This document shows positions 1,138 to 54,352 of a stretch of DNA of 64,000 bases, piece by piece. Where the stretch lies: positions 868,001-932,000 of the forward strand of contig QPGO01000004.1 of assembly GCA_008632985.1 (NCBI GenBank). Reading direction: 5' to 3'. The position numbers were made by a program, and so were the translations under genes. Positions within the stretch are counted from its first letter, which is position 1. The number at the start of each line of letters is the position of its first letter. This stretch comes from Psammoneis japonica. Its lineage: Eukaryota. The notes under the pieces were generated by a model, which was not told the DNA's origin, ran no database searches, and saw only the letters and a list, made by a program, of their open reading frames with translations.

Positions 1138-1418
1138 GGTATTGACATGGCTGTTCTACTCTCTATCGAGAGTCGCAATAAGAAATGTACCGGTTATATG
1201 ATACGCTCAAGCTCCAGAGATACCGGTACTGTACAGAGATATAGAGGTGATCCTGTTGAAGGTTATGCGTTCGTTCGTGGGAATGAAGGAGGAAGCAGTC
1301 CCGCTTCTGTGTCACGGGAGTTGAGAGTTATTGTTGTTGACAAAACCAAACACACAACACACACAAAATAATCGTCCCTTTCACAGCGATACAGAAACGA
1401 TAAATCAACAGCGTGACC

Positions 1419-2436
1419 ATGAAAGATGGCGAAGCAAACGATACTGATTCTGGCGTCGTTGACTCTCAAATCGAAAACGTCGAAAGCCTGGAATCTGCAG
1501 AATCCGAGATGACAGAAGAAGCGCAATCCACCGGCTGTTTTAGTCGACTGAGGGATGATTTTTGCCATCCATTCTTTGGGGTCAAGGAGGTGAATGGGGA
1601 AATTACAGATGTACAGGCTAGCTTTGCGCCCCAGCCGAAACTGAGGACACTGACCGCCAAGATTTGCCTTTTTGGTTGGAGCTTGTCGGTCCTCGCCCAA
1701 GGCATCGCAGAAATCGACACACCGGATTTCTATCTTGCGTACTTGACACATTGGTCCCTTGTTGTGGCGCTCATGTATATGATTGCATCCGTTGTGTTAA
1801 GTCTTCTGAAGGAGCCCGTACAGCCAGATGACAATGGTAGTCCTGGCTTCTCCGTCCGATTCACTTGGGCGTTGTATTCTATTGGCTCAGTAGCTGAGAT
1901 CACGGCAACTCTCTTATTTTGGATTCTTGTGTTTGACCCCAAGAATGGCGTCACATATGAGTTGCTGATGACTCACGGTGGTGTAATGGTTCTGATTTTG
2001 CTGGAAGGGCTACTGGTGAATAGAATCCCTGTGAGGGGAAAGCATTTGTTGTTTCCAATGATGTTTAGCTTGGCGTACGTGATCTGGACAATTATTCATG
2101 CAACGACCAATATCGGGAACCCAAAGTGAGTACAGTACCGGTGAATGCTGCCCTCTGGAAAGTGGCTTCAATTTCACAATGCTAACACAGTGCTTTACGT
2201 TCTGCAGTTCAGATGACGGGGACGCGATTTATTCTAGTTTGAATTGGAAAGATAACCCTGGTTCCGCCACAGTTGTTGCGGTTGTGTGTCTTTTCATCGT
2301 GGTCCCGCTACTGTTCCTCATTGTTTGGCATCTATCCATAATGTCCGGTCCATGTCGGTTTGATGGGTCCAATCGCCGCTATTACGTCCACAGCAAGGAT
2401 ACGATTGGGTCTGTCGACGAAGAGATGGCGCAATGA
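1419..2436 (+). CDS. Multi-pass membrane protein, rolling-stone / FAR-17a-AIG1-like, 2 exons
   Basis: About 6 hydrophobic segments; YLTHW and THGG motifs and IY..LNW in exon 2; intron at about 2126-2207. Confidence 0.7.
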
Positions 2437-2698
2437 TTGTTTCATGCTGCTTGTTATGAAAGTACGGTATGATTTTAACGTTCAGCATGGTAATTTACGA
2501 AAGAAGCGGATACGAAAGCGACACCTCTTGTAACCTAGAGAGTATTTAGACACTCCCCAAGTTATTAGGCTTCAGGCTTGTATTGCTTCTCATGATTTCA
2601 TTTTGGAAAGTGCAAATGAACATAATTCGGAGATGCCTCTGCAGTTCCATGCAGGAGATTTGCGAGTTCTCAGACACGGTATGCTCGGGGAGTTCCTA

Positions 2699-3868
2699 CT
2701 ATTCGTCTCTGGTTGTTTCAGACGTCGGAAGCTGAGTCCATCGATTTTGCTTGTCCTTTGTCTTGATCAGCGCAACGATCACACCAAGCAATGTCAGACC
2801 AGTAACTGCGATGACCGCGGAGCTCATAGCTACTCCATCATGTCGCCTTCCAGGGGTTGGCAGCGACTTGCTTCTCTCGTCTCCAGGACTCAAACAGAAT
2901 CTTCCCAGATACCTCCCATCAGATGGACAGGAACACGCCTTCAAATCGGACGACCAAGTGCCTTGATTTATGGAACACGCGTTGCTGGCAAAAAAGTCTG
3001 CAATTTGATCAGTCATTGGAAATGCCTTTTCAAAGGATGGACTGTTGAAATGCCGCCCATGGTCATGAGTGCAAAAGGTTGTGTTGGCTACGCATCCGAT
3101 TCCGGTTTTGCAAGTTATACCATTGACCTTGTCTTCTAGACTGAGACGAACGCCACCGCTGCACTTGTTGATTTCAGTTGCCCAATTCTCAAACGCGTGC
3201 GTTGCAGAAGTACATTGATCAGCATGATTTGATATTTCACAGCAGCATCGAGGCATGGTTGAGTCGGTACAACACCCGGTGAATCGAACGTATGGGTCAT
3301 CCAAGCTATGATGCATAAAGAGAGCAGTAGGACGAGAGACGGAAGGTTGATAGTCATGACCGGATATAGGAGCTACGGCTCGAAATAGTTCGGCAGCGTG
3401 CGTCGCAAAGTATCCTCCATTTGACCATCCCATAGCATAAGCGATGTCCTTTGACACAAAACTAAATTCGTTTGAGACTTCGTCAATTGTTTGTCGGAGA
3501 AACCCAACGTCATCCACGCCTTGTTCAAGTGCGTAGCCACAGCAATATCCAGCGTTCCAGGAGCGTTGTATACCTTTTGGAATAACAAGAACAAACGAAA
3601 ACTGTTCCGCTACTTGCATCCAATGCTTCATCTGCTGAGGATCGCATCCAAAACAATGGAGTGCAAAAACAAGAGGGAGAACGTCGTGCTGATTCTCCTC
3701 TTGGTGGCAAATCGAAGTCGGTACATACAGCGAGTAGGAACGTTCACAATCCTTTTCTGACGTGCAGCCTGACATTGAAAGTTGCCGCAGCACTTCTTGA
3801 CCGCAGTATTCTCCAACCGGAAGACGCCGACCTGGCATTATCACTCTCACTCCGTCACTGCTTCTCAT
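2699..3868 (-). CDS. Alpha/beta-hydrolase, PHB-depolymerase/LpqC-like esterase with a Cys-rich segment and C-terminal membrane anchor
   Basis: PLVFALHC, SWNAGYCCG, DDVGFL and nucleophile elbow GWSNGG; the start may lie further upstream. Confidence 0.85.
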   Translation of the reverse strand: MRSSDGVRVIMPGRRLPVGEYCGQEVLRQLSMSGCTSEKDCERSYSLYVPTSICHQEENQHDVLPLVFALHCFGCDPQQMKHWMQVAEQFSFVLVIPKGIQRSWNAGYCCGYALEQGVDDVGFLRQTIDEVSNEFSFVSKDIAYAMGWSNGGYFATHAAELFRAVAPISGHDYQPSVSRPTALFMHHSLDDPYVRFTGCCTDSTMPRCCCEISNHADQCTSATHAFENWATEINKCSGGVRLSLEDKVNGITCKTGIGCVANTTFCTHDHGRHFNSPSFEKAFPMTDQIADFFASNACSINQGTWSSDLKACSCPSDGRYLGRFCLSPGDERSKSLPTPGRRHDGVAMSSAVIAVTGLTLLGVIVALIKTKDKQNRWTQLPTSETTRDE

Positions 3869-4322
3869 AGTTAATCATTTATGTACGGGGTAGCCTATCT
3901 ACTCTCTAGCTAGAAGGCGTCGCTCCGCCCCCATTATCGTCGACTGCATACCGTATAATACCTCGGCAATAATGCGAGGCATCACACCGCCGCCGTGCCT
4001 CAGTACAAATTGGACGTTGAATTCTACACGGCTTTGGATGCAGTTTTGACGTGCTGATGACAGATACAGCACATCTGTGCTGTGCACTGTGCACTCACGT
4101 AGAATCAGTACTGGCGCCTACAGAGCATACTATAGACCGAAGTACACGTCACGCGTGGTCGTGGGTAGTCGTGGTATTGATCGTACCTGGTCGTACTTGT
4201 AGTCGTAGAAAAGCAACGGAGGCACTGCCGCTCACCAGAATTGAGAGTCGCTCGTCGAAACGCGAACGAGTGAAGCACGGCGCGATACCACTGTAGACAA
4301 TGATGAACAACGCTATGTATTT

Positions 4323-6554
4323 CTATGTATTGGTAAGTCCTGTCCTCTTACAGTTTTGCCATATCGAATGTAGGCTTGTGATTGACACCCTTGTTGCACG
4401 TCCTGAACTTTGACAGGGGCCCAGAATTCTCTTGCAAAAAACAATCAACCTTGCCGTCGTAGCAGTCGTCAAGGCACTGTACGACCCTAGGGCTCGATAT
4501 GCAAAGCTTTTGATAGGATCTTCCAAGGACTTACCGGCGCGCACCTGATCTTTCACGTCCTGGCATGCATCCACAAATACCTGAACCTTGGTAGCAGCGT
4601 CCTTGGTGGATTTAAATTCAGATTGGTAGTCACGATCAAACTGTACGACGGTATCACCTGTGGACTTGGTTTTTTTGGTGTTCCTTTCATCTTGAGCTGG
4701 GTCAGTAGCAGCTCGCTTCTCCCTTGCACTGTTGGTATTGGTGAGTACTTCAAAAGTTGTAGACTGTGCAGCACGCACTCTTTCTGCAGCCGACTTGTCG
4801 TGCATTCGCATCACCACCTCTGCCTTGCTAGATCCAAGCTCACGAATCAAGAACTGCTTCATTTCTTCTTCATCAGACAAGTCCGGGGTGTATGATGTAG
4901 CTTTTGTGAACAGCTGCTTGACAGTCAATAAGTTGCTCTGCTGCACACCAAGCAGTTCCGTCACGTACCAATCAGCAAGTTCTGGTAGAGGCTTGCGGTA
5001 CCTGGCAGAGTCTACCATGACGGATGCAAATGAAGAAAGATGCTTCATATGGATGGGCTCCCATTTACCAACACGGTGAGCATCCTTGTCCTTTTCCCTA
5101 TCAACTAGAGCCTTCAGTGTACCACTGTCAGAAAGGTAAGTCGCGGTACTTGATATATTCTTGTGACGAGCGCTCAGCAATATGTTCGCTTCGGCCATCT
5201 CACCCAGCCGCCCTCCGCCACGCGTAGAGCCCCATTCAGCAAACGCAAAGCCAGTCCTTCGAAGAATGTGTGTTCCAATGATTTCAGTTGACATCTTATC
5301 AATGTCTCTTCCCAGAATGGTTTCGCAAGCAAACTTGAAAAAATCCAGGAGCGAGTCGTATGGAAAATTTTCGTCGTGATGTTCCTTGTTGAGCTCCAAC
5401 TCGTCTCTAGTGGGAAACAACTTGCCCGACTTGATGCCGGAATAATGCATCCAAAGGAGAATAGCAATAGTTCCTGAGAATTCAGGACATTCTTCATCGT
5501 CCCAAATCATGAAATGAAGATCCTTCTCGTCACGCTTGCCACGGATTTTGGTGCAGAGACCCTTGACGGCATTTTCCGACACTTGGAAGTACTCGGTGAC
5601 AAACTTTTCAACCGTCATCTCCAAAACTTCTTCACAGCGTAGAAATAACTTTGTACCAACAATAATGATAGTCCAAAGCATTAGATGATACTTGTCATTA
5701 TGTGACAAACAGTAGTCTCGAATAGCCCGCACCTCGCCAGGCAAGAATGCAAAAGCACTTCTAGCTTCGTAGTAGTTTGATGCGTAGTCTTGCCATTGGT
5801 CAATTGCAGCCTTGAAATCTTCATGTTTGGTGGTGTTTCCACGACGCCAGAAATGGGGATCACCAGGGTGTTTGCGGCATCCAGTGCCCTTTCGGGCTTC
5901 CTCCTCGCCAATCTCATGACAAGCAGTGCACATTTCTCGGTATTCGCCATTGGTCGTTTCGTAGTGCTTGTGAAGCTTGCTCATGGCAGTGCGGAAGAGC
6001 CCAATGGAAGAATGACCTTTCCAATCACCAATGCAGGTGATAGGGTTTCCATACCGGTCCTTTACAGGAGCGTTCGTGCGGTTGTGAAGTAGTGGTTCGC
6101 CTTTTTGTTTTGTCCTGAACTGAGTAAACTGGATTGCTGTATCCAAATTCGAAGGAAAAGGATCTGATGGACACAAGTCACGTGCCGGCAGCATGGCACT
6201 TTCAGAATCATCAATCAGGTAGCAGAAGTCACGAAAAAGCCTCCATATGGGTTCATACCGTGCAATAGAACTAGTCGCAACAGCGTCAGTGCCTACTTCG
6301 CCGGTCTTTTTGTTCTTTCCTGTAATTGCAAGTTTTGGTGACGTTGTGTCAAGCTTGTACTTCTTCAGTGTCTTATTCAAGCTCGACTCACCAAGAGAGC
6401 GGGTTTGCTGCGTTATTTTGAATCCGCCGCCCTTCAAAATAACGTAAGATGTCATCGTCGAGTGTGTGTTTTCTCTCTCGCGAACGAGAAATGCGAGTTT
6501 TTGATGATTTTCTTTTGGCGCGCCCCTCGAGTTTTCGAATGACCTTTTGGACAA
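4323..6554 (-). CDS. Tyrosine recombinase, Crypton-type
   Basis: Catalytic residues in the expected order: LFLRCEE (R), IRGKRD (K), GTHILRRTG (HxxR), SARH (H), TATYL (Y). N-terminal CxxC...CxxH cluster. Probable frameshift near 4490: another frame reads RVVQCLDDCYDGKVDCF...KFRTC and stops at 4348. Confidence 0.88.
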   Translation of the reverse strand: MSKRSFENSRGAPKENHQKLAFLVRERENTHSTMTSYVILKGGGFKITQQTRSLGESSLNKTLKKYKLDTTSPKLAITGKNKKTGEVGTDAVATSSIARYEPIWRLFRDFCYLIDDSESAMLPARDLCPSDPFPSNLDTAIQFTQFRTKQKGEPLLHNRTNAPVKDRYGNPITCIGDWKGHSSIGLFRTAMSKLHKHYETTNGEYREMCTACHEIGEEEARKGTGCRKHPGDPHFWRRGNTTKHEDFKAAIDQWQDYASNYYEARSAFAFLPGEVRAIRDYCLSHNDKYHLMLWTIIIVGTKLFLRCEEVLEMTVEKFVTEYFQVSENAVKGLCTKIRGKRDEKDLHFMIWDDEECPEFSGTIAILLWMHYSGIKSGKLFPTRDELELNKEHHDENFPYDSLLDFFKFACETILGRDIDKMSTEIIGTHILRRTGFAFAEWGSTRGGGRLGEMAEANILLSARHKNISSTATYLSDSGTLKALVDREKDKDAHRVGKWEPIHMKHLSSFASVMVDSARYRKPLPELADWYVTELLGVQQSNLLTVKQLFTKATSYTPDLSDEEEMKQFLIRELGSSKAEVVMRMHDKSAAERVRAAQSTTFEVLTNTNSAREKRAATDPAQDERNTKKTKSTGDTVVQFDRDYQSEFKSTKDAATKVQVFVDACQDVKDQVRAGKSLEDPIKSFAYRALGSYSALTTATTARLIVFCKRILGPCQSSGRATRVSITSLHSIWQNCKRTGLTNT

Positions 6555-6692: not shown

Positions 6693-9600
6693 TCGAGGGA
6701 GGATTAGGAATGGCGCTACGAGAGCCAATCAGAATTCAGCATTTGGGATTTCTACTTATAGGGGGCCCTCGGAAAGTCGAGGACTTTCCGACTAATTAAT
6801 TACATTTTTTCGGAAAATCTGACGCAATCATTTTAGACGAGGAGGCTGAGACAACTCTCCAAAATCAGACACAAGAATCAAAATGATGCGGAGACCGAAA
6901 TCATCTTCTTTTCGCGCCACGGAAAAACACAACAACACAGACTTCTGTCGCGATGAGAAAAATTCTCTCACAAAAAAAAACCCACGAGAGAGAAAAGTAC
7001 AATCTCTACTGGTGCTTCGATGATGACCGACGTTGAAGAAGAATCAGCTCCACTAAAAGTGGCTACACAGCAGCAGCTGCATCCTTTCTTTATCAACATG
7101 GGCATTCAATCCCAGAAGCGCAAAGGCTCCATTAAAACGAGCAAAAGTCAAGCGCAGACACGTAGAAGCGCACGCAACAGAGCGATTTAAGTGGGCGCAA
7201 GGTGCCAAGAGTAGACGACGGAACAAAGAAATGCAAGAGGTGTGAGAATGGGCCTACATACCATCATGGTCACGATCCCACGTGCAAGTTTTCGAAAAGA
7301 TACATGCAAATCAATGTCACCGCGGCTACGAAAGATGCAGAGCGACGGGAAAAAGAGCTCCATGAAAAGAACAATACGATCCCAGCCGCCCCACAGAAAG
7401 GAGTTTCTACCATGGAAGACCATTTTGAAATTAAAGAATCAAACAGTCGAGCTCCATTGCCTCCTCCCGGTGATTCAAACTTTTGCAAGCCGTGAATCTG
7501 GGAGCGTCCAGTTCTACCGTCGCAAGCAACCCGAATCTTTTTGATGCCGCAAGGAATACAAAATTCTCGGTTGAGACGTTGAAAAAAGAGATTCGAGCAC
7601 GAGTGAAAAAGTATGAGAACTCGGAGGAGAAGACAAAGTGCCCGGCTGCAGTGAGTGCTCTTATCAGTTATCTGTTGGATTCTGTCAAGCCCAGATTTGA
7701 TCAGGGCAGCAACACGCATCCTGTTGCTACAGCAAAAAGCACTAAGCTCAAAGAGATTCTGGAGGTCAAGGATGGTACCTTTCCGCCTGGTACAATATCG
7801 TTTCAAGTTCCCAAGGATGACTGCACTTCACCGCCTGATTATTACTACCACCAGCTGCAGGGTATGATAATATACATCGTTTGTTGGGAGCTGAATTGTC
7901 CTAACATCTACATTTCCTGCATTGACGGAGAGTGTGACGGGGAGATGATTCATGACCGTATGGACTTTACTCGATGCGGTGGGGCGACGCCAACATGTTG
8001 CATCAGCGGTAAGACTCATGTGGCAGTGTCAATGTGGTATGAGTGCAACAAATGCAAGACGCGATGCAAGGGCAACGACGGTCGACTGCTACACAAGTTA
8101 CCAAAAAGCCTTCAATCATCGTATCCAACTGAGCCAAAGTGTGCCAGTGCAACCAACAAATGGCACCTTACAAGGGAAACCACAAGGCCATTTGAATCCT
8201 TTCTTGTCACGCACGCAAACGGCGATAAGTTTTCTCACACGCTACACCAGATGCGAGCTGCCATTTCGAGGATCTCCAGAAAGAGATTGTCAACGAGCCA
8301 ACGATGAATCAGGTGACTGGATGTCTTTCTACGAGTGGATTGGCAGCTGCAGTCCATCAGGTTCTGCGATTCTTGATCTTCATGATGAATCTGGCGCATC
8401 GGAATTGACAGCTCTTGATACGTCATCATACTCCAGATGTACAAGATTGATCCAGATGGTGGGAGCGTCAATGAGCGTGGCTTCTGACCACACTTTTCAA
8501 ATTCTCAAGAATTGTACAAAGAAAGGTGGTGGAGCGGCGGCAGGACCATTTGCTATGTGCAACGAAAAGGGACAGGTTGGAGTTGCTTGTCTGACACCGA
8601 CGTTGGAAGCAAAAGATTTTGCTCACGCAGCCGAGCAGTTCGCGAGGCGAAAGAACGTGCGTCCAAAAATCCATTGCAGCGACACTTGGCCGAACAAGTC
8701 ATCGTCATGGAAGGTGTCATTTGGAGGTTACACAGTGTGCCGTTTGGGTCTCTTTCACTGGATGCACCGCATTGCACAGACACTTCGAAAAGACCACGTC
8801 GACTGTCATCAAGCAGTTCGGGACCTTCGAGCTACAGTTTCATACACCGAGTGGTCGGACCGCCAAGCAGCAATGCAAGCCCTCAAGGATGGAACTCTCA
8901 ATGGCAAAAAGCACACGGATGCAGAAATAGATGAGATCATCCATTCTTCCAGGTGGAAGCACTGCTCAGAATACATGCGCATTTGGAGGCATCCGCTGGA
9001 AAAGAGAATCAGCTTGCTTGACGATTGGCACGCCCGACACAAGTGTACGGCTTCTGATGGATCGCGACCCGCTGGGGGACGTCTTGATCCAAACAGTGGT
9101 TTGACACTCTTTACAAGTGATACAAAGGATGCCGTGGCAAATGGAAGAGAAACATCCAAGGGATTGGACGTTCCAGTGCCAAAGTCAGAGCAGTACTGGC
9201 CAGTGGCTCCATCGCTCCGTTCAAGAGCGAAGCTGGTGAAGTGGCGGACATTACTCGGGCCGGAGTCAAAGTTGGAAAAGGCTCATGATTCGCTGGCTCA
9301 TTATGGGAACTGTGGGATGCGAGATTCATTGATGGATTTGATCACTCTGGAAGGTTTGGTTCTCTACAACGCTGCAATTGAAGAAAAGGAACGCGTTGAA
9401 CGAATGAATCCAGAGACTCGAGCAAAGATTCCATGCGATTTTCGGGGTGTGGTTACTCATCGGAACGTGCTCAATCTAATCGAAATCAACAAGCTAGCAA
9501 CAAAGAAGGGGAAGAAAGCGCCCTGTCCAGATGCAAGGGAACTCGAGGCGGACACCGGCGAGCGTTTTCTGTCCAAGTGCCTGCGGGAGCAGAATGCTAG

Positions 9601-11466
9601 AAATGAAACAATTGCTCCACACCCGGAGACGGATCGATGCATGTGCAATGTCTGTGGGACAAAGCCAGTGACAAATCCATACAAGCGAACAACAAGATCA
9701 GTTGTTGGAAACGGCAACGATGGAGAAACTACAGCAGTGGCAAGCGTTCGACCGGCTGGTGGTTTTGTGGAAATTGTGGCGGCTCCTCAGGTGGGGGTTG
9801 AATCTATGTGTGTGAATGACACACCATTGCTTAACGTGGCTCACGTTCGAGTCGAGGAGCAGTTCAACATGTTGCAAGCCGTGAGAAGCGCCCTGTCACA
9901 ACAAGTTGCCATTGCATCGAGCATGAGCGCATCCCTCCCATCTGTTCCATGTCAAGTGCAACCGGCTCTTTCAAATCTTAATGATCTGATGCGGGATCAG
10001 AGGAAGCAAGACATTGATCCATGCTGTTGTCCTGTCTTCCTACAATGCAAGCTGCAGCAAAGCTGCAGTGTGACGGGGTGCCAACCAAGAGGTCGACCAG
10101 TGCATTCTATGGATTGCCCAAAGAGACAGCAGTCAAGGAGGTAGATGTCATCATTGCTGGGCACACTTCATGTGTTGCTGCTTTTGTTGACATTCTCGTG
10201 AGACAGCTGCCACTCGTAGAAGCGATCTAGCCTAGAGACGCACAGCAGTGTTTTCGAAACAGAGCTGAGTTTCCATGAGTTGTGAATTCACTGTTTTGTT
10301 TCTTATCCACCACACTTCCACAACTGTTGGTTGTTGTGTCCTCCACACACTTCATCACAATGCCACACTCAAGTGCCACCTTTCAAGGGCAGGTGAACCC
10401 TGTCGAAACGGAGATTCGGGTCTGCGGCGGTTGAAGGCACTCCCGTCCTTGGAAGCACCAGTCAACGCCTCACCGGGGGGCAACCCCTTGGCTCTCGTTG
10501 GCCGTCTCAATGTTCAGAGGTGGGGCCACATGAACATTGTTGCAGAAAAAAATTGCCGAGGCGCTGCTGCAGTCAGCAACCTCGGCAGTAGCCCGTGTTG
10601 TTCAAAGACGAGGGCAACCTCGTCTGCCGCTCACACACGGACTTTTCCAAAAGTGGTGGATTGTAGATTGCCAGCCAAAACAAACCACACCCACAACCAA
10701 CATGTGACATCCATTCCATCATATCCCGGTCAACAGCGCTTGTGGTGCCGCCGCACTCAGCAATTCCAATGAACCCTGAAAAGCCACCACTCCAACAACT
10801 TCTAAAGCCTCGTCAACGAAGGGTGAACACTCGGCTGAAGCCAAAAAGGCAACAATACAAAGCATCAGCATGAGAGACGCCATGAATGATCAATGCTTAA
10901 AGGAGGGCTCTTCAATCTGTCAAGAACGAACAGAAATTGCAACGCAAGAGCGGTGAGAGACGAGTTCAAAAAATGGAAAAAGTGCCAAGCATTTCTCATC
11001 CATTTTTCACGTTTTTCATACATCTCTTTTCGTACATTCATTCATCAGAGAGAGTTTTAATGCGTGCTTTGTTGTCACAACAGCATCACAAGTGACGGCG
11101 ACAATTTCGACTGCCGGCTCTTGCAGCTCTCATGGTCGATTTTTTGTGTGGTGTCGGAGGGAAACTCCTGAATTGCGTAGATTTCTACGTAAAATTCACA
11201 CTAGAGATACTTCAACACTGCAATGTCTCGATCTGTGTCACCACACCAAATTACTTCAACATGGGAGCACCCGGAGATCTGACACATCGGGTGGTGAAAC
11301 GGGAGAAAGAATTGACGATGGCTCTTCAAACCACTTCTGCCTTTTAGATCAAGCTCGCTGCCCTCGCAACCCCTTCCTCTCTCCTTCCTTTCTCTCCTCC
11401 TCCTCCTTCTTTCTCCTCTCCCCTCCCCCCCTCTCTTGGAGTCACTAACCCCCCCAAAATCCGTCT
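6693..11466 (+). repeat. Copy 1 of a ~4.77-kb head-to-tail tandem unit
   Basis: Starts tcgagggaggattaggaatgg and ends in a pyrimidine tract plus ggagtcact; colinear with 11467-16225. Confidence 0.97.
6953..10144 (+). pseudogene. DDE-transposase-like ORF, copy 1 (frameshifted, many Tyr->Cys/His changes)
   Basis: Same protein as copy 2, but split over several frames (7202-7495, 7483-8307, 7952-10144). Confidence 0.8.
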
Positions 11467-14400
11467 TCGAGGGAGGATTAGGAATGGCGCTACGAGAGCC
11501 AATCAGAATTCAGCATTTGGGATTTCTACTTATAGGGGGCCCTCGGAAAGTCGAGGACTTTCCGACTAATTAATTAACATTTTTTCGGAAAATCTGACGC
11601 AATCATTTATAGACGAGGAGGCTGAGACAACTCTCCAAAATCAGACACAAGAATCAAAATGATGCGGAGACCGAAATCATCTTCTTTTCGCGCCACGGAA
11701 AAACACAACAACACAGACTTCTGTCGCGATGAGAAAAATTCTCTCACAAAAAAAACCCACGAGAGAGAAAAGTACAATCTCTACTGGTGCTTCGATGATG
11801 ACCGACGTTGAAGAAGAATCAGCTCCACTAAAAGTGGCTACACAGCAGCAGCTGCATCCTTTCTTTATCAACATGGGCATTCAATCCCAGAAGCGCAAAG
11901 GCTCCATTAAAACGAGCAAAAGTCAAGCGCAGACACGTAAGAAGCGCACGCAACAGAGCGACTCAAGTGGGCGCAAGGTGCCAAGAGTAGACGACGGAAC
12001 AAAGAAATGCAAGAGGTGTGAGAATGGGCCTGCATGCCATCATGGTCACGATCCCACGTGCAAGTTTTCGAAACGATACATGCAAATCAATGTCACCGCG
12101 GCTACGAAAGATGCAGAGCGACGGGAAAAAGAGCTCCATGAAAAGAACAATACGATCCCAGCCGCCCCACAGAAAGGAGTTTCTACCATGGAAGACCATT
12201 TTGAAATTAAAGAATCAAACAGTCGAGCTCCATTGCCTCCTCCCGGTGATTCAAACTTTTGCAAGCCCGTGAATCTGGGAGCGTCCAGTTCTACCGTCGC
12301 AAGCAACCCGAATCTTTTTGATGCCGCAAGGAATACAAAATTCTCGGTTGAGACGTTGAAAAAAGAGATTCGAGCACGAGTGAAAAAGTATGAGAACTCG
12401 GAGGAGAAGACAAAGTGCCCGGCTGCAGTGAGTGCTCTTATCAGTTATCTGTTGGATTCTGTCAAGCCCAGATTTGATCAGGGCAGCAACACGCATCCTG
12501 TTGCTACAGCAAAAAGCACTGAGCTCAAAGAGATTCTGGAGGTCAAGGATGGTACCTTTCCGCCTGGTACAATATCGTTTCAAGTTCCCAAGGATGACTG
12601 CACTTCACCGCCTGATTATTACTACCACCAGCTGCAGGGTATGATAATATACATCGTTTGTTGGGAGCTGAATTGTCCTAACATCTACATTTCCTGTATT
12701 GACGGAGAGTGTGACGGGGAGATGATTCATGACCGTATGGACTTTACTCGATACGGTGGGGCGACGCCAATATATTGCATCAGCGGTAAGACTCATGTGG
12801 CAGTGTCAATGTGGTATGAGTGCAACAAATGCAAGACGCGATGCAAGGGCAACGACGGTCGACTGCTACACAAGTTACCAAAAAGCCTTCAATCATCGTA
12901 TCCAACTGAGCCAAAGTATGCCAGCGCAACCAACAAATGGCACCTTACAAGGGAAACCACAAGGCTATTTGAATCCTTTCTTGTCACGTACGCAAACGGC
13001 GATAAGTTTTCTCACACGCTACACCAGATGCGAGCTGCCTATTTCGAGGATCTCCAGAAAGAGTATTATCAACGAGCCAACGATGAATCAGGTGACTGGA
13101 TATCTTTCTACGAGTGGATTGGCAGCTACAGTCCATCAGGTTCTGCGATTCTTGATCTTTATGATGAATCTGGCGCATCGGAATTGACAGCTCTTGATAC
13201 GTCATCATACTCCAGATGTACAAGATTGATCCAGATGGTGGGAGCATCAATGAGCGTGGCTTCTGACCACACTTTTCAAATTCTCAAGAATTATACAAAG
13301 AAAGGTGGTGGAGCGGCGGCAGGACTATTTACTATGTGCAACGAAAAGGGACAGGTTGGAGTTGCTTGTCTGACACCGACGTTGGAAGCAAAAGATTTTG
13401 CTCACGCAGCCGAGCAGTTCGCGAGGCGAAAGAACGTGCGTCCAAAAATCCATTACAGCGACACTTGGCCGAATAAGTCATCGTTATGGAAGGTGTTATT
13501 TGGAGGTTACATAGTATGCCGTTTGGGTCTCTTTCACTGGATGCACCGTATTGTACAGACACTTCGAAAAGACCACGTCGACTATCATCAAGCAGTTCGG
13601 GACCTTCGAGCTACAGTTTCATACACCGAGTGGTCGGACCGCCAAGCAGTAATACAAGCCCTCAAGGATGGAACTCTCAATGGCAAAAAGCACACGGATG
13701 CAGAAATAGATGAGATCATCCATTCTTCCAGGTGGAAGCACTACTCAGAATACATGCGCATTTGGAGGCATCCGCTGGAAAAGAGAATCAGCTTGCTTGA
13801 CGATTGGCACGCCCGATATAAGTGTACGGCTTCTGATGGATCGCGACCCGCTGGGGGACGTCTTGATCCAAACAGTGGTTTGACACTCTTTACAAGTGAT
13901 ACAAAGGATGCCGTGGCAAATGGAAGAGAAACATCCAAGGGATTGGACGTTCCAGTGCCAAAGTCAGAGCAGTACTGGCCAGTGGCTCCATCGCTCCGTT
14001 CAAGAGCGAAGCTGGTGAAGTGGCGGACATTACTCGGGCCGGAGTCAAAGTTGGAAAAGGCTCATGATTCGCTGGCTCATTATGGAACTGTGGGATGCGA
14101 GATTCATTGATGGATTTGATCACTCTGGAAGGTTTGGTTCTCTACAACGCTACAATTGAAGAAAAGGAACGCGTTGAACGAATGAATCCAGAGACTCGAG
14201 CAAAGATTCCATACGATTTTCGGGGTGTGGTTACTCATCGGAACGTGCTCAATCTAATCGAAATCAACAAGCTAGCAACAAAGAAGGGGAAGAAAGCGCC
14301 CTATCCAGATGTAAGGGAACTCGAGGCGGACACCGGCGAGCGTTTTCTGTCCAAGTACCTGCGGGAGCAGAATGCTAGAAATGAAACAATTACTCCACAC

Positions 14401-16225
14401 CCGGAGACGGATCGATGTATGTGCAATATCTGTGGGACAAAGCCAGTGACAAATCCATACAAGCGAACAACAAGATCAGTTGTTGGAAACGGCAACGATG
14501 GAGAAACTACAGCAGTGGCAAGCGTTCGACCGGCTAGTGGTTTTGTGGAAATTGTGGCGGCTCCTCAGGTGGGGGTTGAATCTATGTGTGTGAATGACAC
14601 ACCATTACTTAACGCGGCTCACGTTCGAGTCGAGGAGCAGTTCAACATGTTGCAAGCCGTGAGAAGCGCCCTGTCACAACAAGTTGCCATTGCATCGAGC
14701 ATGAGCGCATCCCTCCCATCTGTTCCATATCAAGTGCAACCGGCTCTTTCAAATCTTAATGATCTGATACGGGATCAGAGGAAGCAAGACATTGATCCAT
14801 ACTGTTGTCCTGTCTTCCTACAATACAAGCTGCAGCAAAGCTACAGTGTGACGGGGTGCCGACCAAGAGGTCGACCAGCGCATTCTAAGGATTGCCCAAA
14901 GAGACAGCAGTCAAGGAGGTAGATGTTATCATTACTAGGCATACTTTATGTATTACTACTTTTGTTGACATTCTCGTGAGATAGCTACTACTCGTAGAAG
15001 CGATCTAGCCTAGAGACGCACAGTAGTGTTTTCGAAACAGAGCTGAGTTTCCATGAGTTACGAATTCACTATTTTATTTCTTATCTACCACACTTCTATA
15101 ACTATTGGTTGTTGTGTCCTCCACATACTTCATCACAATACCACACTCAAATACCACCTTTCAAGGGCAGGTGAACCCTATCGCAACGGAGATTCGGGTC
15201 TGCGGCGGTTGAAGGCACTCCCGTCCTTGGAAGCACCAGTCAACGCCTCACCGGGGGGCAACCCCTTGGCTCTCGTTGGCCGTCTCAATGTTCAGAGGTG
15301 GGGCCACATGAACATTATTGCAGAAAAAAAATTACCGAGGCGCTGCTGCAGTCAGCAACCTCGGCAGTAGCCCGTGTTATTTAAAGACGAGGGCAACCTC
15401 GTCTGCCGCTTATACACGGACTTTTCCAAAAGTGGTAGATTGTAGATTACCAGCCAAAACAAACCACACCCACAACCAACATGTGACATCCATTCCATCA
15501 TATCCCGGTCAACAGCGCTTGTGGTGCCGCCGCACTCAGCAATTCCAATGAACCCTGAAAAGCCACCACTCCAACAACTTCTAAAGCCTCGTCAACGAAG
15601 GGTGAACACTCGGCTGAAGCCAAAAAGGCAACAATACAAAGCATCAGCATGAGAGACGCCATGAATGATCAATGCTTAAAGGAGGGCTCTTCAATCTGTC
15701 AAGAACGAACAGAAATTGCAACGCAAGAGCGGTGAGAGACGAGTTCAAAAAATGGAAAAAGTACCAAGCATTTCTTATCCATTTTTCACGTTTTTCATAC
15801 ATCTCTTTTCGTATATTCATTCATCAGAGAGAGTTTTAATGCGTGCTTTGTTGTCACAACAGTATCACAAGTGACGGCGACAATTTCGACTACCGGCTCT
15901 TGCAGCTCTCATGGTCGATTTTTTGTGTGGTGTCGGAGGGAAACTCCTGAATTGCGTAGATTTCTACGTAAAATTCATACTAGAGATACTTCAACACTAC
16001 AATGTCTCGATCTGTGTCACCACACCAAATTACTTCAACATGGGAGCACCCGGAGATCTGACACATCGGGTGGTGAAACGGGAGAAAGAATTGACGATGG
16101 CTCTTCAAACCACTTCTGCCTTTTAGATCAAGCTCGCTGCCCTCGCAACCCCTTCCTCTCTCCTTCCTTTCTCTCCTCCTCCTCCTTCTTTCTCCTCTCC
16201 CCTCCCCCCCTCTCTTGGAGTCACT
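11467..16225 (+). repeat. Copy 2 of the ~4.77-kb tandem unit, ending at an assembly gap
   Basis: Starts tcgagggaggattaggaatgg at 11467; colinear with copy 1 up to the Ns at 16226. Confidence 0.97.
11729..14922 (+). CDS. ~1060-aa DDE-transposase-like protein (RNase H fold, Mutator-like motif order), copy 2, with one 1-bp frameshift near 14085
   Basis: Candidate triad SDHTF (D), YSDTWP (D), SKLEKAH (E), with LGLFHW between the second D and the E; CNEKGQV strand; Zn-binding clusters CKRC..H.H..C, CIDGEC..CNKC and a C-terminal CC..H..C. Confidence 0.7.
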
Positions 16226-16393
16226 NNNNNNNNNNNNNNCCCCTCTGGTGCACAGCAGTCAGCAGTCGCCATTTCATACCGTGTAGTGTGTTCAGGATTG
16301 CGTGTGAACAGCAACAACACCACTCCGCGTCTGAAACTGTTGTACTACTATTGAGCTTACTATTGACAATCTTGACTGAAAGAAGAAGTGGCA

Positions 16394-19300
16394 ATGTCTT
16401 CTGAAGATCCCGCTGAGGCGGCGCAACATCTCGCGACACAGAGCAACGTTGACGCTGTTTTTGCCGACCTGGAAGAACGGCATGTTGCCGTCGAAAAGGA
16501 GAGAGACGAGTTGCGGGAAAGAGCAGAATCTCTGGAGGGAGTTGTAAAGGAAATTCGGGCCGAACTATCTGCTCGAGATGATTCTCTTCGTTCGATGGAA
16601 TCCGAATTGGCCGCGGCCAAGCGAGAGAGACAGGTGTTCGAAGATACGGCGCTCACCTCTGAGGCCAGTCAAAAGACACAGCAAGAGCGTATGGATCGTA
16701 TGGAGGCGGAAGCAGATGCCCTCCGTGAAGAGATTACTCGCTTGACTGAGTCCAACAAGGAAATGGCGGCCAAGCTTGCCGAGGCGGACACCAAGAAGCT
16801 TTTGTCGTCTTCTGCAGCCATTCCGCTTCAGTACGAGCTAGAGCGGGCCCGAAAGGAACTCGACTCATTATCAGCCCATAACAAGTGGTTGGAAAGCGAG
16901 CTTACAGCCAAGAGCAATCAGCTCACTACGTGTAAAACGGATCATAGCAAGGAGATTATTGATTTAAGGTCCAAGCTCGACAAGGCCGTGGCAGACATGG
17001 AACTTGCGACTTCCCAAGAAGAAACGCTCGTGCGTACGCAAGAAGAACTTCAGGCCAAGGTGGAGCAGCTTTCCACTCAACTTTTCCAACAGAAGCAGGA
17101 GGCTACGGATAAGGCTCTTGCCAAAGAGGACGAGCTTGAGGCCGAGCGACGGCTGACCGCACTACAGAAGGAGCAGCTCGAGCGAATGGATCATCGCTAC
17201 AATGATGTCATCAGGCAGAACAAGCAAATGAAAGAGCTTGCTTCGCAAGCTGCCGCAGAGTCTCGGACAGAACGGGAACGAGTCCGGGAAGATCTTCTGA
17301 AAGAGTCCAAGGCGGCGCTTGAGCAGCAGGCTGAGGAATATGCTCAGAGAGTTGAAGAGCTGGAGAAGCAGCTCGAGGACTCGAATCGACGAAGGATCGA
17401 GGCCGAGGGCGGACTCTTGGCGTCCCCCCCATCTAGACGATCCCGTGCCTTGTTGCCACCCGAAAGGGATTCAGGAGAACGTCTACAAGGCGAACAGGAA
17501 CCTGTAGGTTTGACGGAGCTGTATGCCCGCTTGTCGGAGCGGGAGGATGAGCTGCGCGCAGAGACGATCGAGAGGCGTCGCCTCGAGCTCTACCAAGAAA
17601 AGATCATGGCTCAAATAGAAGCCCAGGCCCCTGTATTGCTGAGACAAAGACAAGAATACGATTTGGCCATGAAGAAACATCAAGAATTATCCGCTCGTCT
17701 CGAAGAGGCGTTTGATGAAACGGCGGCCGCCAAGACGGAAGCGTCAGACCTCCAACGCGAAAACTCTTCGTTACAGAAGAAGGTTGGCGAAATGGAACAA
17801 GAGAATATGGATCTCGCCAAGCAGGTCCAGCACTTGCTACAAAAAATCTCTGGCGACGGAGGAGCGTCCACCCAAGACACAGAAGGGGATGATGTTCCCG
17901 TGTTCGCTAATGTGGAAGAAATCCAGAAACAGAACCAACGTCTCTTGAAGGAACATCGTCGTCTCACAAACACTGTGGCCGAGTTGGAACAGAAGCTCGA
18001 GACGGAGCCTTTGCTGGTGCAATTGGAAGAGAAAAAGCAAGAATTGTCTACTCTTCGCCAAGATCAAAAGCGGCAGGAAACCCTTGTCGCGGGGATTGTG
18101 CAGCAGCGGGACCTCTACCGAGCTCTTCTCGCGAAGCACGATAGCAGCATCATCGAAGGCGGAGATGGTGCCGGTCCTACTGGCGATGATGCCACTGCTT
18201 TAATCCTTGCACAGCAAAAAGAAAAGACGAGGGAAGTTGAATCGAAGAATCGTCAATTGGAAGACGACTTAGCAAAGGTGAAAGCGGAGTCGAGCGCCGC
18301 GAATCTTGCCAAGGAGGCAGCGGAGGAGCGGCTTGCGAGATACGATGCACATTCACTGGAACTGACAAACTCGGTCGATAGGTTACAATCTCAGCTCTCA
18401 GCCGCCAATGCAGCGACTGCACGTAGCGACGCGGAGGCTTCTTATCACCGGGAGAAGTGTGTCAGACTTGAGGAAAGCCTCCAGCTCTCCCGTTCTGAGA
18501 CGACCCGAGCCAATGAGGCCAAGAGGGAAATGCAAAATGTCAACGCGGAATTGCAACAAGCAGTCGCCAAGGCGAATGCCGATGCCGGAAAATACGAGCA
18601 ACAGCCCGACAGGTGAGCGAAGTGAAGCGACGTTTGTTTCTTTTTTTAAAATACATTGCCACCATTGAATCTCACACCGTCCTTTGCGATTTTTATCAGG
18701 CTTCTATGAAACTTCGTCTTGCAGAAACACAGGTAGAGACGGCAAAGTCTGCTGAGGCACGCATTGCTCTCGAGACAAACTCGCTTCGTTCAGAGCTGGC
18801 ACGGCAGGGGGCTCTCCTAGATTCCGTGCAACGCATCGAAGCGAGCTTGTCAGCGAAGAATGAAGAAGATAAGAAGAAGCTTGCGGAAGATTTAGAACGG
18901 CTTTCGCAAGAGCTTGCTTCGGAAAAAGCAAAGAGTTCGGTTGAATTGGAGAACCATGTAAGCAGGGTTCGTGAGCTCGAAGCAACAATGAAAGAAACGG
19001 AGAAAAAGAAGGACGATGCAATGTCGGAGCTACTTCAGGCGAAGGAAAACGCTTTGAAAGTGACATCAGAGACGCAGGCGTTATCAGCAAAGTGCTCTCG
19101 ACTGGAGAGCGAGCTTCGTATTGCCAAGACGAAATTGGGAGAGGGAGATGTAGAGACCGAAGAAGAACAGACGATGCAGGCTCGGATTGAGGTCCTTACG
19201 GCTGAGCTTGACTCAACTCGGTCAGAAGTGACCGCCGCAAAGGAGCGAGTTACAATGTACCAGAACATCTCAAAGGAGAGCGAAGAAGCTCTCGCCGACC

Positions 19301-22300
19301 TGAACAAGGCAGCAGAAGAGTACAAGAAGACTCACGCGGAAGAAATGGATCAAGCTCAAAAGGAGATCGACTCGCTCAAGGCGGCGAGTGAGGCCAGGCA
19401 AGAGATGATTGCTGAACTCACGCGAGATCTGTCCAGCCAAAGAGGCGAACAAGAAAAGATTGTTTCTGAGCTGAAGGTACAGATCGAATCTCTCAAAGAA
19501 GAGGCCCAGACTTTCAAGAAAGATGCTGAGTCTGCCGCAGCTCGCTACGCATCTCTAGAGGCTGACATGACGAGCTACCGCGAGAGTGCCACTTCCGCTC
19601 AGGTAAGGATCTGTGCTTTGTCGTCCATCTCGTTCTGTTGCTTGTGCCATATCGCTAACTTTTGCCCTTCTCCGCCGCCCTTTAGAACAATTACGAGAGA
19701 GAACTTGCGCTCCATGCAGCAGCACGCACTGACCTTCGCTCTGCCAGGGAAGAGGCTGACTCCGAAATTCGTCTTCGAAAGATTGCCGAAGAGCAGTTGG
19801 AGAGTTTGAACATGGAGCGGAATGAGGAACGCGAAGCATGGGGAGAAGAAAGGGGGGCGATGGAAAGAAGATTGAAGGAAGCAGAAAAAAGCTTAGAGGA
19901 TTCTCGCTCGCAGAACAATAATTTACACAGTCAGTTGGCAACGCTAGGCGAGATGCTAGAAAAGACACAATCCGAAAAGATTTCAGCTGTCTCGAATGAA
20001 GTCAAGGAAGGTAATGAACCAGGCGATCATGGTGAGGAGTTGAACAATCTTCGAAAGATTGTTTCGGAGCAAAGAGAAGTTGTCAGCTTCATGCGATCGG
20101 AGCGCGAAATGATTCAAGCCCAGCTTGATGCAGCCCGTCGCACTGCAGAGAGAGAACGTGCTGCGTTCGAGGTTTCTCAGCGAAATTTAGACGAAGCTCG
20201 CGCCGAGCTGACACTGTTACAATCAGAACAGGATAGTTCTACCGCAAATACCGATAAGGCACGGGAGCTAGAAGGCAAACTGAAACAATCTGGAGAGCAA
20301 TTGACGCTGCTTCGCGAGAGCAACAAACTTCTTCGTGAGGAGGCTGAAAAAATGGGAGCGTCCCTTTCTTCAGCTGAAGCTGAGCTGGAAAACATCAAGA
20401 AGTCTACCGAACCGACTGAGGCGAGTCGTCGCAAGCTCGAAATAGAGAAAGCAGCACTCGAAGCCGAAAAGGCCAGTCTTCTGCGCGAAATCGACGATTG
20501 GAAAGGTCGAGTGCAGAGTTTAGTCTCCAAGTTCCATCAAGTAAGCTCGTGACCACATCTTTGTTGTCATTGTCTTCTTTGATGCGTTCTTAACATATTC
20601 TCTTCTTTCCGTTGCAGATCGATCCGGATGAACACGAAAAGGTTAAAGGACAAGTCGAACAATTGCGAAAAGAGTGCGAGCAGCTGAAGAATCAGAAGGC
20701 TAACAGCGAGAAGGAAACCAGCAATGCGAAGCTTTTATTATCTCGTGTGAACAAAGAGCTTTCGCAGCAACGGGCACTCGTGGAAACGCAGCGCAAAAGC
20801 ATTTCAAAGTTGTCGGCAGAGAGAGAAGAAGCGGCTAAATCATCCAAAGCTTCGGTGCAGGCAAAGAAGGAAGTCGAAATGCTGAAGATTGAGGTGCAGA
20901 AAATGAAAGCGGAAGCTTCGTCTAGAGATACCGAGCTGAAAGGCGCAAACGAGCGGAACGAGTCTCTGAAGACGATGATGCGTCAATTAATGAAGAATAT
21001 GCAGGATGCGAAGAAGGAACGCGACGATGCAAAATCGAAGCTGAAGGAGTTGGAGAGAATGAAAGCTACCGAACGTCCTTCAGTGCCCCCTGCTTCTGCG
21101 AAACAAGGAGACCAGCAGGAGAAGGTAGATCTTAAGGGCCCTAGCTCGTCTGTCGTTGGCAAGGCAAGCGGCGTGCCGGTAGCAGCAACCACAGAAGTTT
21201 CTCAGAAAGAAGAAACTAAACTGCTTCCTCGCATTCCGCCTGGTGGGTTCAAATATGGCCCAGGGGTCAAAAGGCAAGGCACCGACAAACCTATACAGGT
21301 AGACAGCGTCATGGCCGATTCACACCAACAAAAAGCGAAAGACAAGGTCGTGGAGCCAGCTACGATTCCAGCCAGCTCGGCTCTTGGTGACACTACCAAC
21401 CCCCAGGCTTCCGAAGCTCCAATTGCGAAAGATATCAAAGAGAAAGCTGTTACTTCCAGAGTTCCCAAGAAGAGCGTCAGTAAGCATGCGGAGGCGCCCG
21501 GGGCTGCAAATTCCAAGGTAGACGGACGGAAGAAGCGCAAAGAGGAAGAGGAGGAAATAACACAGGAGCTTTCCATGCGGCAGAAGCTTATGGAGAAGAA
21601 AAGGCGCCTAGCAGAGCTGAAGAAAGCGAAAGAAGCCGCGGAATCCTCCGAAGAGAAGACGGAGCGCAACGAGGACAGCACAACGGAACCAATTGCCAAG
21701 AAGGCGAAACTTTCCGCGGGAGCGAAGCCTTTCACACCCGCTCAAACTAGCGATAAAGCCCCTCCTGCTAGTACAGAAGAAGCAGTAGGTACAGGAGAAG
21801 CATCTATCACATCGTCGTCGCACACCGAAAAAGAGACGAGAGAAGATAAGATGCCTCCGACTGAATCCGAAACCTCCCCAGAAAAGGGAGCGCAGTCTCC
21901 CGACGAAGCTGCCCTGCCCGCTGAAGTAGAGGAGACGCAAGAAGAAACTGGTGATTCCGCTTTTGCCCCGCCAAAAAAACAAACGCTACCACCACTTCAA
22001 GAGGAGCAGAATCTCACGGATTCTGATGCAAAGCAAGCTGATGTCGATGATTCACAACAGCCAGTCTCAGCGCCGGAAAGCGACAACCAGGTGTCTGAAA
22101 TGAAAACTGGCGACAGCGCCGTTGGTGGAGTTTCTCCGTTCGGCGGCGTGGGTACTAGCAGCCAGCCAATTGTATTTGGCAGCAGTACCAGCCTTGCTCA
22201 GTCTGGTGCTCCAGCGACGTTCGGCACAAACGCAGGTAGCTCCTTCCTCGACATCAAGCCGCCTGGGTCATCCGCTACAGGGCCTTTCAAATTTGGTTCC

Positions 22301-22558
22301 TCGGAATCAATCACGCTTCCACTGCCATCCCAAAAAGCTCCGAATGCTCCCTCTTTCGGAATATTTGGACAGCAATCCTCAAGCGCCTCCAATCCGTTTG
22401 GCGGTACTCCATCGCAGGCGAAACCGCTCTTCGGCAGCGCCACAACCGAACACGTAGACGAGGTAGAAGAGGATCAAGGCGATGAGCAGAAGATTGAGTC
22501 AGTAGGTGAGAATGGACAGGAGGGTGACGAAGGCGATGAAGAAGATGCGCAGGACTAG
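16394..22558 (+). CDS. TPR: Nuclear basket nucleoporin TPR/Mlp1, 4 exons
   Basis: Long coiled coil with QQRDLYRALL, AQNNYERELALHA (spliced), LLRESNKLLR and W..R...L..KF..IDP motifs and an FG-containing tail; introns at about 18613-18699, 19603-19685 and 20541-20617. Confidence 0.92.
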
Positions 22559-46882: not shown

Positions 46883-47858
46883 GGTTTTGGTTTGCAGTTT
46901 TTGCACCGCCTCGCACCTCTTTCACAGCCACAACATGGCGCTCAACGCGCGCTTTGAATTCCGCGCCCGTTTCACTTGGGACTGACGTTGCTGTGGTCCC
47001 GCCACCCTTTGCCATCTCTTTCCCCCGCATGCCTTTACCATCATCTCTCTCCGATCCGGCAGCTACTTCGATGCCTCCTGCTGCACCTCATGTCTCTCAT
47101 ACCTTCCGCTCTGCACAGGCACTCTTTACTCTCAGTAAAAAAATCCACAGATCAGATCATGATGAATGTGCGAATGATGCCAAAGAGATCACAATGCGTG
47201 GTCGTTGCAGGGGGTCTCTTTAGAATGGATGTCAGTGCCACGAAAAGATGCTGCACTGAAAGCATGTTGGTTCTGTGGTGTCTTTTCAGAGGGTGCATCA
47301 ACCCGGGTGTGCCATGCACTGAAGAAGGAGTGCAGGAGATGGAGTCACCAAAACATGAGTTGCTGCTCCAGCCCACGCACTTTGATGAACGGCTGTGTCT
47401 CACTGTCTTCATGAGCATCACATGAGGACATTGTGGTTGGCATCATTCATCAAAAATGTGCCATCATCTTAAATGAGCTGCTCTCAAGAAGGTGGGTGTC
47501 CACAGCTCTCTTGCTCTGCCCGCGTCCCTGCTGCCAAGAGACGAGGAGCTCGACAGCACATTTCTCACTTTTGTCAGCATCAACTTGATCACAGACCTCT
47601 TTGGCTTGACAGTGGTCTTTTGACAGTGCCCACTGATGTGGCCCAGCACAATTCACAGATGGGGCATCATCAACACTTTGAAACAAGCTTCAAAATCTTG
47701 TCCAGCCAACTCTTTTTTTGTCCTCTTCCACCTTCTTTGTGCGCAAAGCCTTCAAATGATGGCCAGCACACCTTTGCAACACCTGCTCAATGGCAAGGCA
47801 ACTGCAGAGCACAAAACAACAACGGACAATGAAGAAACTGCAAGTTCTTGAAGATGAG

Positions 47859-48664: not shown

Positions 48665-48768
48665 CCCCCCCCCCCAAGATCTGAAAGGAGCACAAAAAGT
48701 TGCCAGACAAAAAAAATGTTTTTCCTCTTGCTGACATTGCAAAAAGAAAAAGAGACCAAAAAGCAAGA

Positions 48769-54300: not shown

Positions 54301-54352
54301 CAAAATCCGACTTCAAATCTGTCGCTGTTGACCCCTCAAGCAAACTGGGGAG

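Follow-up and report, generated by a model that had tools for sequence, protein, structure and literature searches.

A Tandem Repeat in a Diatom-Like Genome Points to TpA-Specific A:T-to-G:C Hypermutation of Mobile DNA

Results

A 4.77-kb Tandem Repeat and Its Protein

The 64-kb window analyzed here (positions 868,001 to 932,000 of contig QPGO01000004.1, Psammoneis japonica assembly GCA_008632985.1; all coordinates below count from its first base) contains one long tandem repeat, the two copies of which differ in a way that points to a hypermutation directed at the dinucleotide TpA. In a self-BLAST, 6693-11446 aligned with 11467-16225; the alignment of 4761 columns contains 96 mismatches and 9 gaps and has an identity of 97.795%. 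Based on this result and on a MAFFT alignment, copy 1 of the 4.77-kb unit was placed at 6693-11466 and copy 2 at 11467-16225, both on the plus strand; copy 2 bears TA at the differing sites and, judged also from homologous proteins (see below), appears to be the ancestral-like one. It is followed by a run of 14 N (16226-16239), which stands where copy 1 has a C-rich 14-mer and which is either an assembly gap or masking.

Each unit contains one long open reading frame (ORF). Unbridged, the reading frames of both copies are broken: in copy 1, one-base frameshifts at 7489, 8262, and 8285 leave pieces at 7474-8307 and 7949-10144, and in copy 2 a single frameshift at 14083 divides the ORF into 11663-14110 and 14068-14922. 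Bridging the one-base indels yields an open frame of 1086 codons in both copies. The initial annotation of this stretch, made from the sequence alone, had described the TA-bearing copy as open and without nonsense codons; this is correct for the 1086 bridged codons, but not for copy 2 as it stands, given the frameshift at 14083. Terminal inverted repeats were looked for in the 4.77-kb unit, and none were found.

The encoded protein belongs to a large family, comprising 809 cluster representatives at E ≤ 1e-3, of which 209 reach E ≤ 1e-30, although the repeat ORFs themselves matched no Pfam family. One of 16 homologues matched DUF6729 at E = 1e-4, below the cut-off, and language-model features pointed to clusters of DUF6729 (0.92) and of CxC5/CxC6 and Transposase_mut (0.78), with KDZ and Mutator-type transposase clusters indicated as well. 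A structure model of the 815-aa repeat ORF reached a mean predicted local distance difference test (pLDDT) score of 62.7. Foldseek returned no match to this model at E ≤ 0.001, the best being the ISCth4 transposase at E = 0.13, and a VIA search with the same model gave Z = 5.9 at a root-mean-square deviation of 13 (VIA-wide best Z 6.7, one helical segment). The best of these non-significant structural matches were IS256-family transposase and integrase cores. As a lead only, the predictions suggest a protein that resembles a DNA transposase rather than a reverse transcriptase.

The Copies Differ Almost Only at TpA

Aligned base by base with MAFFT, the copies differ by 96 substitutions outside the N run. 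At 83 of these 96 sites copy 1 has G or C and copy 2 has A or T (G against A at 49, C against T at 34); only 10 transitions run in the opposite direction, and 3 substitutions are transversions. The initial annotation had stated that the copies differ almost only by TA versus TG/CA, and both the alignment and a formal spectrum bear this out. All of its example sites are present (7976; 7994/7997; 8547/8552; 8695/8706/8718), as are eight consecutive changed TAs at 10149-10180, three of them now CA and five TG.

The formal spectrum was counted over copy 2 coordinates 12697-15999, corresponding to a hypermutated tract of copy 1 at 7920-11220. The 139 TpA dinucleotides of copy 2 in this tract read TA at 58 places in copy 1, TG at 47, CA at 34, and CG at none, so that 81 of 139 (58%) were changed. 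Adenines preceded by T were changed in 81 of 280 cases, compared with 2 of 1458 among all other A:T pairs (Fisher odds ratio 296, p = 2.7e-66), and the dinucleotide spectrum thus contains a roughly 300-fold enrichment for TpA. Of 166 CpG sites in the tract, 160 were unchanged and 6 (3.6%) were changed, with the derived TG or CA lying in copy 1 at five of the six. This position of most CpG differences in copy 1 would fit a copy that was also methylated. Per site, TpA loss in the tandem repeat exceeds CpG loss about 16-fold (58% versus 3.6%), as had been proposed. The accompanying picture of a decaying young repeat needs to be modified: TpA loss does outpace CpG decay, but it is not an even decay, being instead a burst limited to the tract at 7920-11220 with a few further sites at the start of copy 2.

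Anatomy of the Hypermutated Tract

In bins of 250 bp, 33-80% of the TpA were changed from 7943 to about 11200, with peak densities of 76-80% at 9943-10692; in the first 1.25 kb of copy 2 the values were 0-25% per bin. The density of changes tapers gradually at both tract ends. The affected stretch is contiguous across the copy junction, about one unit long, and covers the non-coding 3′ sequence as well as the ORF. Four sites have the reverse arrangement, with TG or CA in copy 2 and TA in copy 1; in the alignment they lie at 11964-12521 (copy 1 7188-7743). Derived TpA-type sites therefore number 81 in copy 1 and 4 in copy 2. Expressed as unit offsets, copy 1 is derived only at 1227-4527 and copy 2 only at 495-1054; the two derived stretches are complementary and together span 4.6 of the 4.77 kb. 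Because homologues support the copy 1 residue at two of the four reverse sites (Leu in 5 versus Ser in 0; Tyr in 6 versus Cys in 0), copy 2 appears to have been lightly hit too.

TG (47) and CA (34) outcomes interleave along the tract, forming 40 runs where 40.5 are expected (z = -0.1). The rate of change depended on the base 3′ of the A (C 39%, T 35%, A 16%, G 15%), and a G two bases upstream was disfavoured among changed sites. With Y for pyrimidine and R for purine, YTAR was changed at 20% and RTAR, RTAY, and YTAY at 50-67%. Neighbouring bases thus modestly steer which sites and strands change.

Two of the one-base frameshifts of copy 1, the deletions at 8262 and 8285, lie in the tract, and each has cost a TpA one of its base pairs. 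They could be side products of the process that changed the TpA sites (n = 2).

TA Is the Ancestral State

The polarity of the changes was determined with 151 homologues, aligned by query-anchored BLASTP to the copy 2 translation in which the differing residues had been masked as X. A non-synonymous TA-type site was taken as informative if at least 40 homologues covered it (n = 30). The commoner residue among the homologues was that of copy 2 at 28 of these sites and that of copy 1 at one, with one tie; summed over all 30, 1260 residues match copy 2 and 106 match copy 1. Copy 2 has Tyr, Ile, Val, Thr, and Leu at these sites, and copy 1 has Cys, His, Thr, and Ala. At position 543, for example, Tyr occurs in 121 of 141 homologues and Cys in 3; at position 898 Tyr occurs in 78 of 85 and Cys in 2; and at position 369 Ile occurs in 69 of 114 and Thr in 1. 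At 17 positions where Tyr is conserved in the family, copy 2 retains 14 Tyr, compared with 6 in copy 1, which has 5 Cys and 3 His instead.

A second test concerns stop codons. If CA and TG had been the original state, 42 of the 395 CA/TG sites in the copy 1 frame would have made a stop when converted to TA, yet none of these was hit among the 43 in-frame changes (p = 0.006). Since the homologues match copy 2, TA is ancestral, and copy 1 underwent TA-to-TG/CA changes rather than the mutations of fungal repeat-induced point mutation (RIP). The ancestry of TA had been inferred earlier from the open frame of copy 2, with the proviso that homologues carrying Cys or His would speak against it; both the outgroup comparison and the absence of stops now agree with that inference. 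As one copy was hit and the other largely was not, the tandem repeat serves as an internal control, which fixes spectrum and polarity without a model.

A TpA-Free Block With a Second Element

The dinucleotide profile of the window revealed a block almost without TpA at 47222-60693 (13.5 kb), which contains 49 TA where 836 are expected from base composition, an observed/expected (o/e) ratio of 0.06 compared with 0.56 in the rest of the window. CpG is also depleted in the block (317 versus 838 expected, o/e 0.38; profile range 0.02-0.7), and TG and CA are in excess (o/e 1.5-2.2). Only TGA-type stops are left, and therefore long ORFs overlap on both strands; 18 ORFs taken from the block had no Pfam match at the curated cut-off.

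Within the block, a transposon-type gene of a second, unrelated family lies on the plus strand at 50228-53954, in two frames that switch near 52870-52890. Its ORF at 50654-53008 (785 codons), a real gene of an unrelated mobile-element family, is open and has 36 homologues, the best aligning at E = 2.7e-201 and 45% identity with no frameshifts. Six homologues of this second family had no Pfam match at the curated cut-off. At 22 positions where the family conserves Tyr, the block protein has 11 Cys, 6 His, 4 Tyr, and 1 Phe, so that 17 of the 22 are now Cys or His. Of 24 positions with a conserved Arg, 11 are likewise replaced (9 by His and 2 by Cys), which is the mark of CpG decay. As a control, 22 conserved Tyr positions of a host DnaJ-TPR gene were compared, and these contain 15 Tyr, 3 His, 3 Phe, 1 Arg, and no Cys.

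The gene at 50228-53954 is flanked by a pair of 245-bp direct repeats on the plus strand, at 48769-49013 and 54353-54599, which were identified by self-BLAST and pair alignment and are 90.7% identical. Their 21 mismatches consist of 7 dinucleotides that are CA in one repeat and TG in the other (14 bases) and of 7 sites with CG versus CA or TG. The CA-versus-TG differences are what would be expected if an ancestral TA had been hit independently in the two copies. Because the 245-bp copies differ in this way, the changes postdate the existence of two DNA copies.

The second frame of the element (52665-54365) ends where the right 245-bp repeat begins, and there carries a short motif that we take to resemble the start of copia-type reverse transcriptases; no reverse transcriptase or integrase profile matched this frame or its homologues. 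Two further repeats were observed in the block. At 47859-48664 a 269-bp unit is repeated 3.0 times at 98% identity, with few differences, none of them at TpA because no TpA is left there. A diverged direct repeat (74% identity) connects 57070-57220 with 57420-57566.

The Same Signature in Other Data Sets

Nine of the 151 homologues of the repeat protein have 4-7 Cys or His residues at the 17 conserved Tyr positions; examples are one with 7 Cys at 12 and another with 5 His and 2 Cys at 9 such positions. In the second family, 1 of the 36 homologues has 11 Cys and 7 His at 21 conserved Tyr positions. The homologues with this Tyr-to-Cys/His signature come from ENA/JGI/Logan proteins and from metagenome data.

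A scan of metagenome contigs found 79 loci encoding relatives, in microbial-mat assemblies with SPAdes-style names. Among these, seven near-identical contig pairs (98.4-99.5% identity), three of which share loci, served as young pairs. Their 180 differences include 70 of TA versus TG/CA and 46 of CG versus TG/CA. The transition rate was 4.8% at TpA (70 of about 1448), 2.9% at CpG (46 of about 1592), and 0.17% elsewhere (28 of about 16,680), a TpA excess of about 29-fold. In the trio L003/L025/L031, two-against-one polarisation gave 12 changes from TA to TG/CA and 3 in reverse. In the pair L004/L036 (99% identical) the changes cluster in tracts of 70-170 bp, which are reciprocal, each being derived in one copy and containing TG and CA mixed.

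Discussion

Proposed Process

We propose that mobile or repeated DNA in this diatom-like genome, and in relatives of it, is subject to a TpA-specific A:T-to-G:C hypermutation, which acts at the DNA level and in tracts; we assign this reading a probability of about 70%. What is observed comprises the spectrum and polarity of the changes, their distribution in tracts without strand runs, and the reappearance of the pattern in a second element and in further data sets; our confidence in any particular enzyme is much lower than our confidence in a real DNA-level process. The process would turn TpA into TpG or CpA by an A:T-to-G:C change at the A of the dinucleotide on either strand. Its outcome would be decided site by site, in tracts of about 0.1 to several kb, and it would co-occur with CpG decay. 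In the tandem repeat, a single contiguous stretch would have been hit, reaching through the final three quarters of copy 1 and, with a lighter load of changes, into the beginning of copy 2. Over time, and together with ordinary CpG decay, the process could drive transposon DNA to a TG/CA-saturated, TpA-free state. It would never make a stop codon and would remove TAA and TAG.

Because strand runs are lacking, the terminal 245-bp repeats differ from each other, and the tract crosses the copy junction and covers non-coding sequence, the process probably acts on double-stranded DNA in place. It is also likely to be enzymatic, since 58% of the TpA were changed while the background divergence of the pair is about 0.2%. 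The DNA that it targets would be silenced or repeated.

Alternative Explanations

An alternative that concerns only the step of mutation in place is recombination, in which an already hypermutated copy (an allele, or an ectopic or circular copy) was joined with a pristine one. The product would be arranged as pristine[0..x]-mutated[x..end]-mutated[0..x]-pristine[x..end], and the complementary derived stretches (offsets 495-1054 in copy 2 and 1227-4527 in copy 1, about one unit together) agree with this. The copy 2 part is defined by only four sites, however, and the density of changes declines gradually towards both ends. Mutation in place of one contiguous domain accounts for the picture without an extra event, and we consider recombination unlikely, though worth keeping in mind.

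A base-calling or assembly artefact could arise if a modified base at TpA, together with 5-methylcytosine (5mC) at CpG, were misread by a long-read base-caller. Such misreading would give TG and CA at random and never CG, in a regional pattern, along with apparent CpG-to-TG/CA changes. Two DNA-type runs of one study contain fractions of 0.46 and 0.38 of the window's sampled words, and no RNA run containing them is listed; neither point was used as evidence. An artefact is made less likely by independent metagenome assemblies and ENA/JGI/Logan proteins, in which both the TpA excess and the Tyr-to-Cys/His signature reappear. The open 785-codon ORF of the block, moreover, aligns without frameshifts at E = 2.7e-201, which argues for a good consensus quality. 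We therefore regard this explanation as improbable; if it did apply, TpA would have to carry a modification not described so far.

We give still less credence to RNA editing, that is, ADAR-like or ADAT-like A-to-I conversion in element transcripts that were then copied back into DNA. In its favour, adenosine deamination leaves A-to-G changes as its signature, both tRNA-type deaminases and the mRNA editing of fungi are known to prefer a 5′ U, and the second element may, as judged from the motif resemblance, be a retroelement. One RNA strand gives one type of change, though, whereas A-to-G and T-to-C alternate here site by site. The tract is part of one tandem copy, takes in 3′ non-coding sequence, and continues into the copy that follows; the CA-versus-TG differences between the 245-bp terminal repeats place the changes after the DNA copies existed; and the repeat protein appears, from weak leads, to be transposase-like and not a reverse transcriptase. 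ADAR prefers a 5′ U or A over C and G and favours a 3′ G, unlike the 3′ pyrimidine preferred here.

Classical RIP-like C-to-T mutation of copy 2 (CA/TG to TA) shares its dinucleotides with Neurospora-type RIP and would have a tandem duplication as its target, but this polarity is refuted by the outgroup test (copy 2 residues in homologues at 28 of 30 sites), the lack of any stop among 43 in-frame changes (p = 0.006) argues against it as well, and the CA-versus-TG double differences and TpA-free transposon DNA are the opposite of RIP, so that it has practically no chance of being correct.

Several other candidates were rejected. GC-biased gene conversion is excluded by the mere 2 of 1458 non-TpA A:T pairs that changed, and strand-coordinated single-strand deamination by the runs test (z = -0.1). 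CpG methylation decay does not explain the TpA changes and is a second, weaker process here. The process fits neither ADAR-type nor APOBEC editing.

Some points weigh against a TpA-specific hypermutation of repeated DNA as we propose it. Any enzyme, base modification, or targeting rule is postulated here from sequence patterns, and the claim that repeats are targeted rests on one 64-kb window and on metagenome contigs. Of the seven metagenome pairs, three have loci in common and hence are not independent. The tract starts 1.2 kb into the unit, stops inside it, and spares the other copy, which homology sensing of the RIP type does not predict. For two of the four reverse sites, the polarity is left undecided by the homologues, and the complementary tract and the four copy 2 sites could equally be produced by recombination with a mutated copy. 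For this window itself, a base-calling artefact on modified DNA could still apply.

Candidate Chemistries

Three chemistries could underlie the proposed TpA hypermutation. An adenine deaminase could share the need of TadA/ADAT for a 5′ U or T; a JBP/TET-type enzyme could oxidize or hypermodify the T of TpA to a product that mispairs with G; or a methylated A in the palindromic TpA could deaminate, by analogy with 5mC at CpG. A change of A on one strand equals a change of T on the other, and for this reason the sequence alone cannot separate these candidates. TadA/ADAT deaminases act at the U33-A34 step in tRNA, and a T followed by an A is the site of base J in the telomere repeats of trypanosomes and of 5-hydroxymethyluracil in dinoflagellates. 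The TadA/ADAT and JBP/TET enzymes are thus similar to the proposed process in acting at a U/T-A step; to our knowledge, neither is known to mutate the genomic DNA of transposons.

It is for us an even bet that a genome-defence or heterochromatin-linked system of diatoms marks or edits the palindromic TpA and thereby rewrites transposons permanently by A:T-to-G:C hypermutation. Its agent may be either an enzyme that modifies thymine or a naturally occurring deaminase of adenine in DNA.

Comparison With Known Systems

RIP of ascomycete fungi is similar in that dense, context-specific transitions occur in duplicated or mobile DNA, involve the same dinucleotide set of TA, TG, and CA, and strongly skew the dinucleotide composition of transposon-rich blocks. 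In RIP both copies of a duplicated sequence can be mutated; here the copies have 81 and 4 derived sites. The direction differs: TA becomes TG/CA here, whereas RIP converts CA/TG to TA. With this opposite polarity, G+C is raised, stops are removed and not made, and cytosine chemistry is impossible. Furthermore, the host here is a diatom-like stramenopile, most of one copy has escaped change, and the tract has its end within the repeat. RIP depends on cytosine methyltransferases of the RID/DIM-2 type and on a premeiotic stage. DNMT4, which is related to RID, is reported in many diatoms, with its function given as unknown (PMC9998398).

Decay of 5mC at CpG likewise leads to the loss of a palindromic dinucleotide to TG/CA in silenced DNA, and affects the same regions here; the process described in this study differs from it in having TpA as its target and A:T to G:C as its change. 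Hyperediting by ADAR, as in A-to-G hypermutated viruses and retroelements of animals, also yields clustered A-to-G changes on both strands. Here, in contrast, a 5′ T is present at 81 of 83 changes, a 3′ pyrimidine is favoured, and the changes affect a tandem copy in the genome itself and distinguish one terminal repeat from the other. As far as we know, ADARs are known only from animals.

No description of TpA-to-TpG/CpA hypermutation was found in the literature searched, and the parts of PMC9998398, PMC9258296, and PMC2806351 that were covered mention neither such a hypermutation nor a thymine or adenine modification of diatom transposons. Within this literature, we rate the pattern as a new kind of hypermutation, the mirror image of fungal RIP. 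If the reading as a genome-defence system is confirmed, RIP-like systems would for the first time extend beyond fungi, and such a chemistry would be without precedent among them; it would amount to a second independent invention of mutational genome defence, in major marine primary producers. It would use an A:T-pair chemistry not known to act on eukaryotic genomes and imply an undescribed TpA-specific enzyme or DNA modification; a natural TA-specific A-to-G DNA editor would be of interest for base editing. It would also provide a mutational cause for extreme TpA depletion. Hypermutated elements would lose Tyr codons and TAA/TAG stops, and would thus keep long overlapping false ORFs and escape profile searches, and the dating of repeats by their divergence would be inflated.

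Host and Genomic Context

The window is eukaryotic and intron-poor, and Pfam identified nucleoprotein TPR, JmjC, DnaJ/TPR/RING, and kinase domains in it. The named relatives of one host protein are from the pennate diatoms Seminavis (42%) and Cylindrotheca (41%), the best match overall reaching 51%; on this basis the window is read as coming from a diatom. The left edge of the TpA-free block is adjoined by an ORF on the minus strand (45701-46921) with Methyltransf_32 and a CCHC zinc knuckle, and no link between the two is indicated. Directly after the tandem repeat and the N run, four consecutive plus-strand ORFs extend over 16376-22558 and open with a TPR-like nucleoprotein domain; together they probably form one large nuclear-basket gene with a few short introns.

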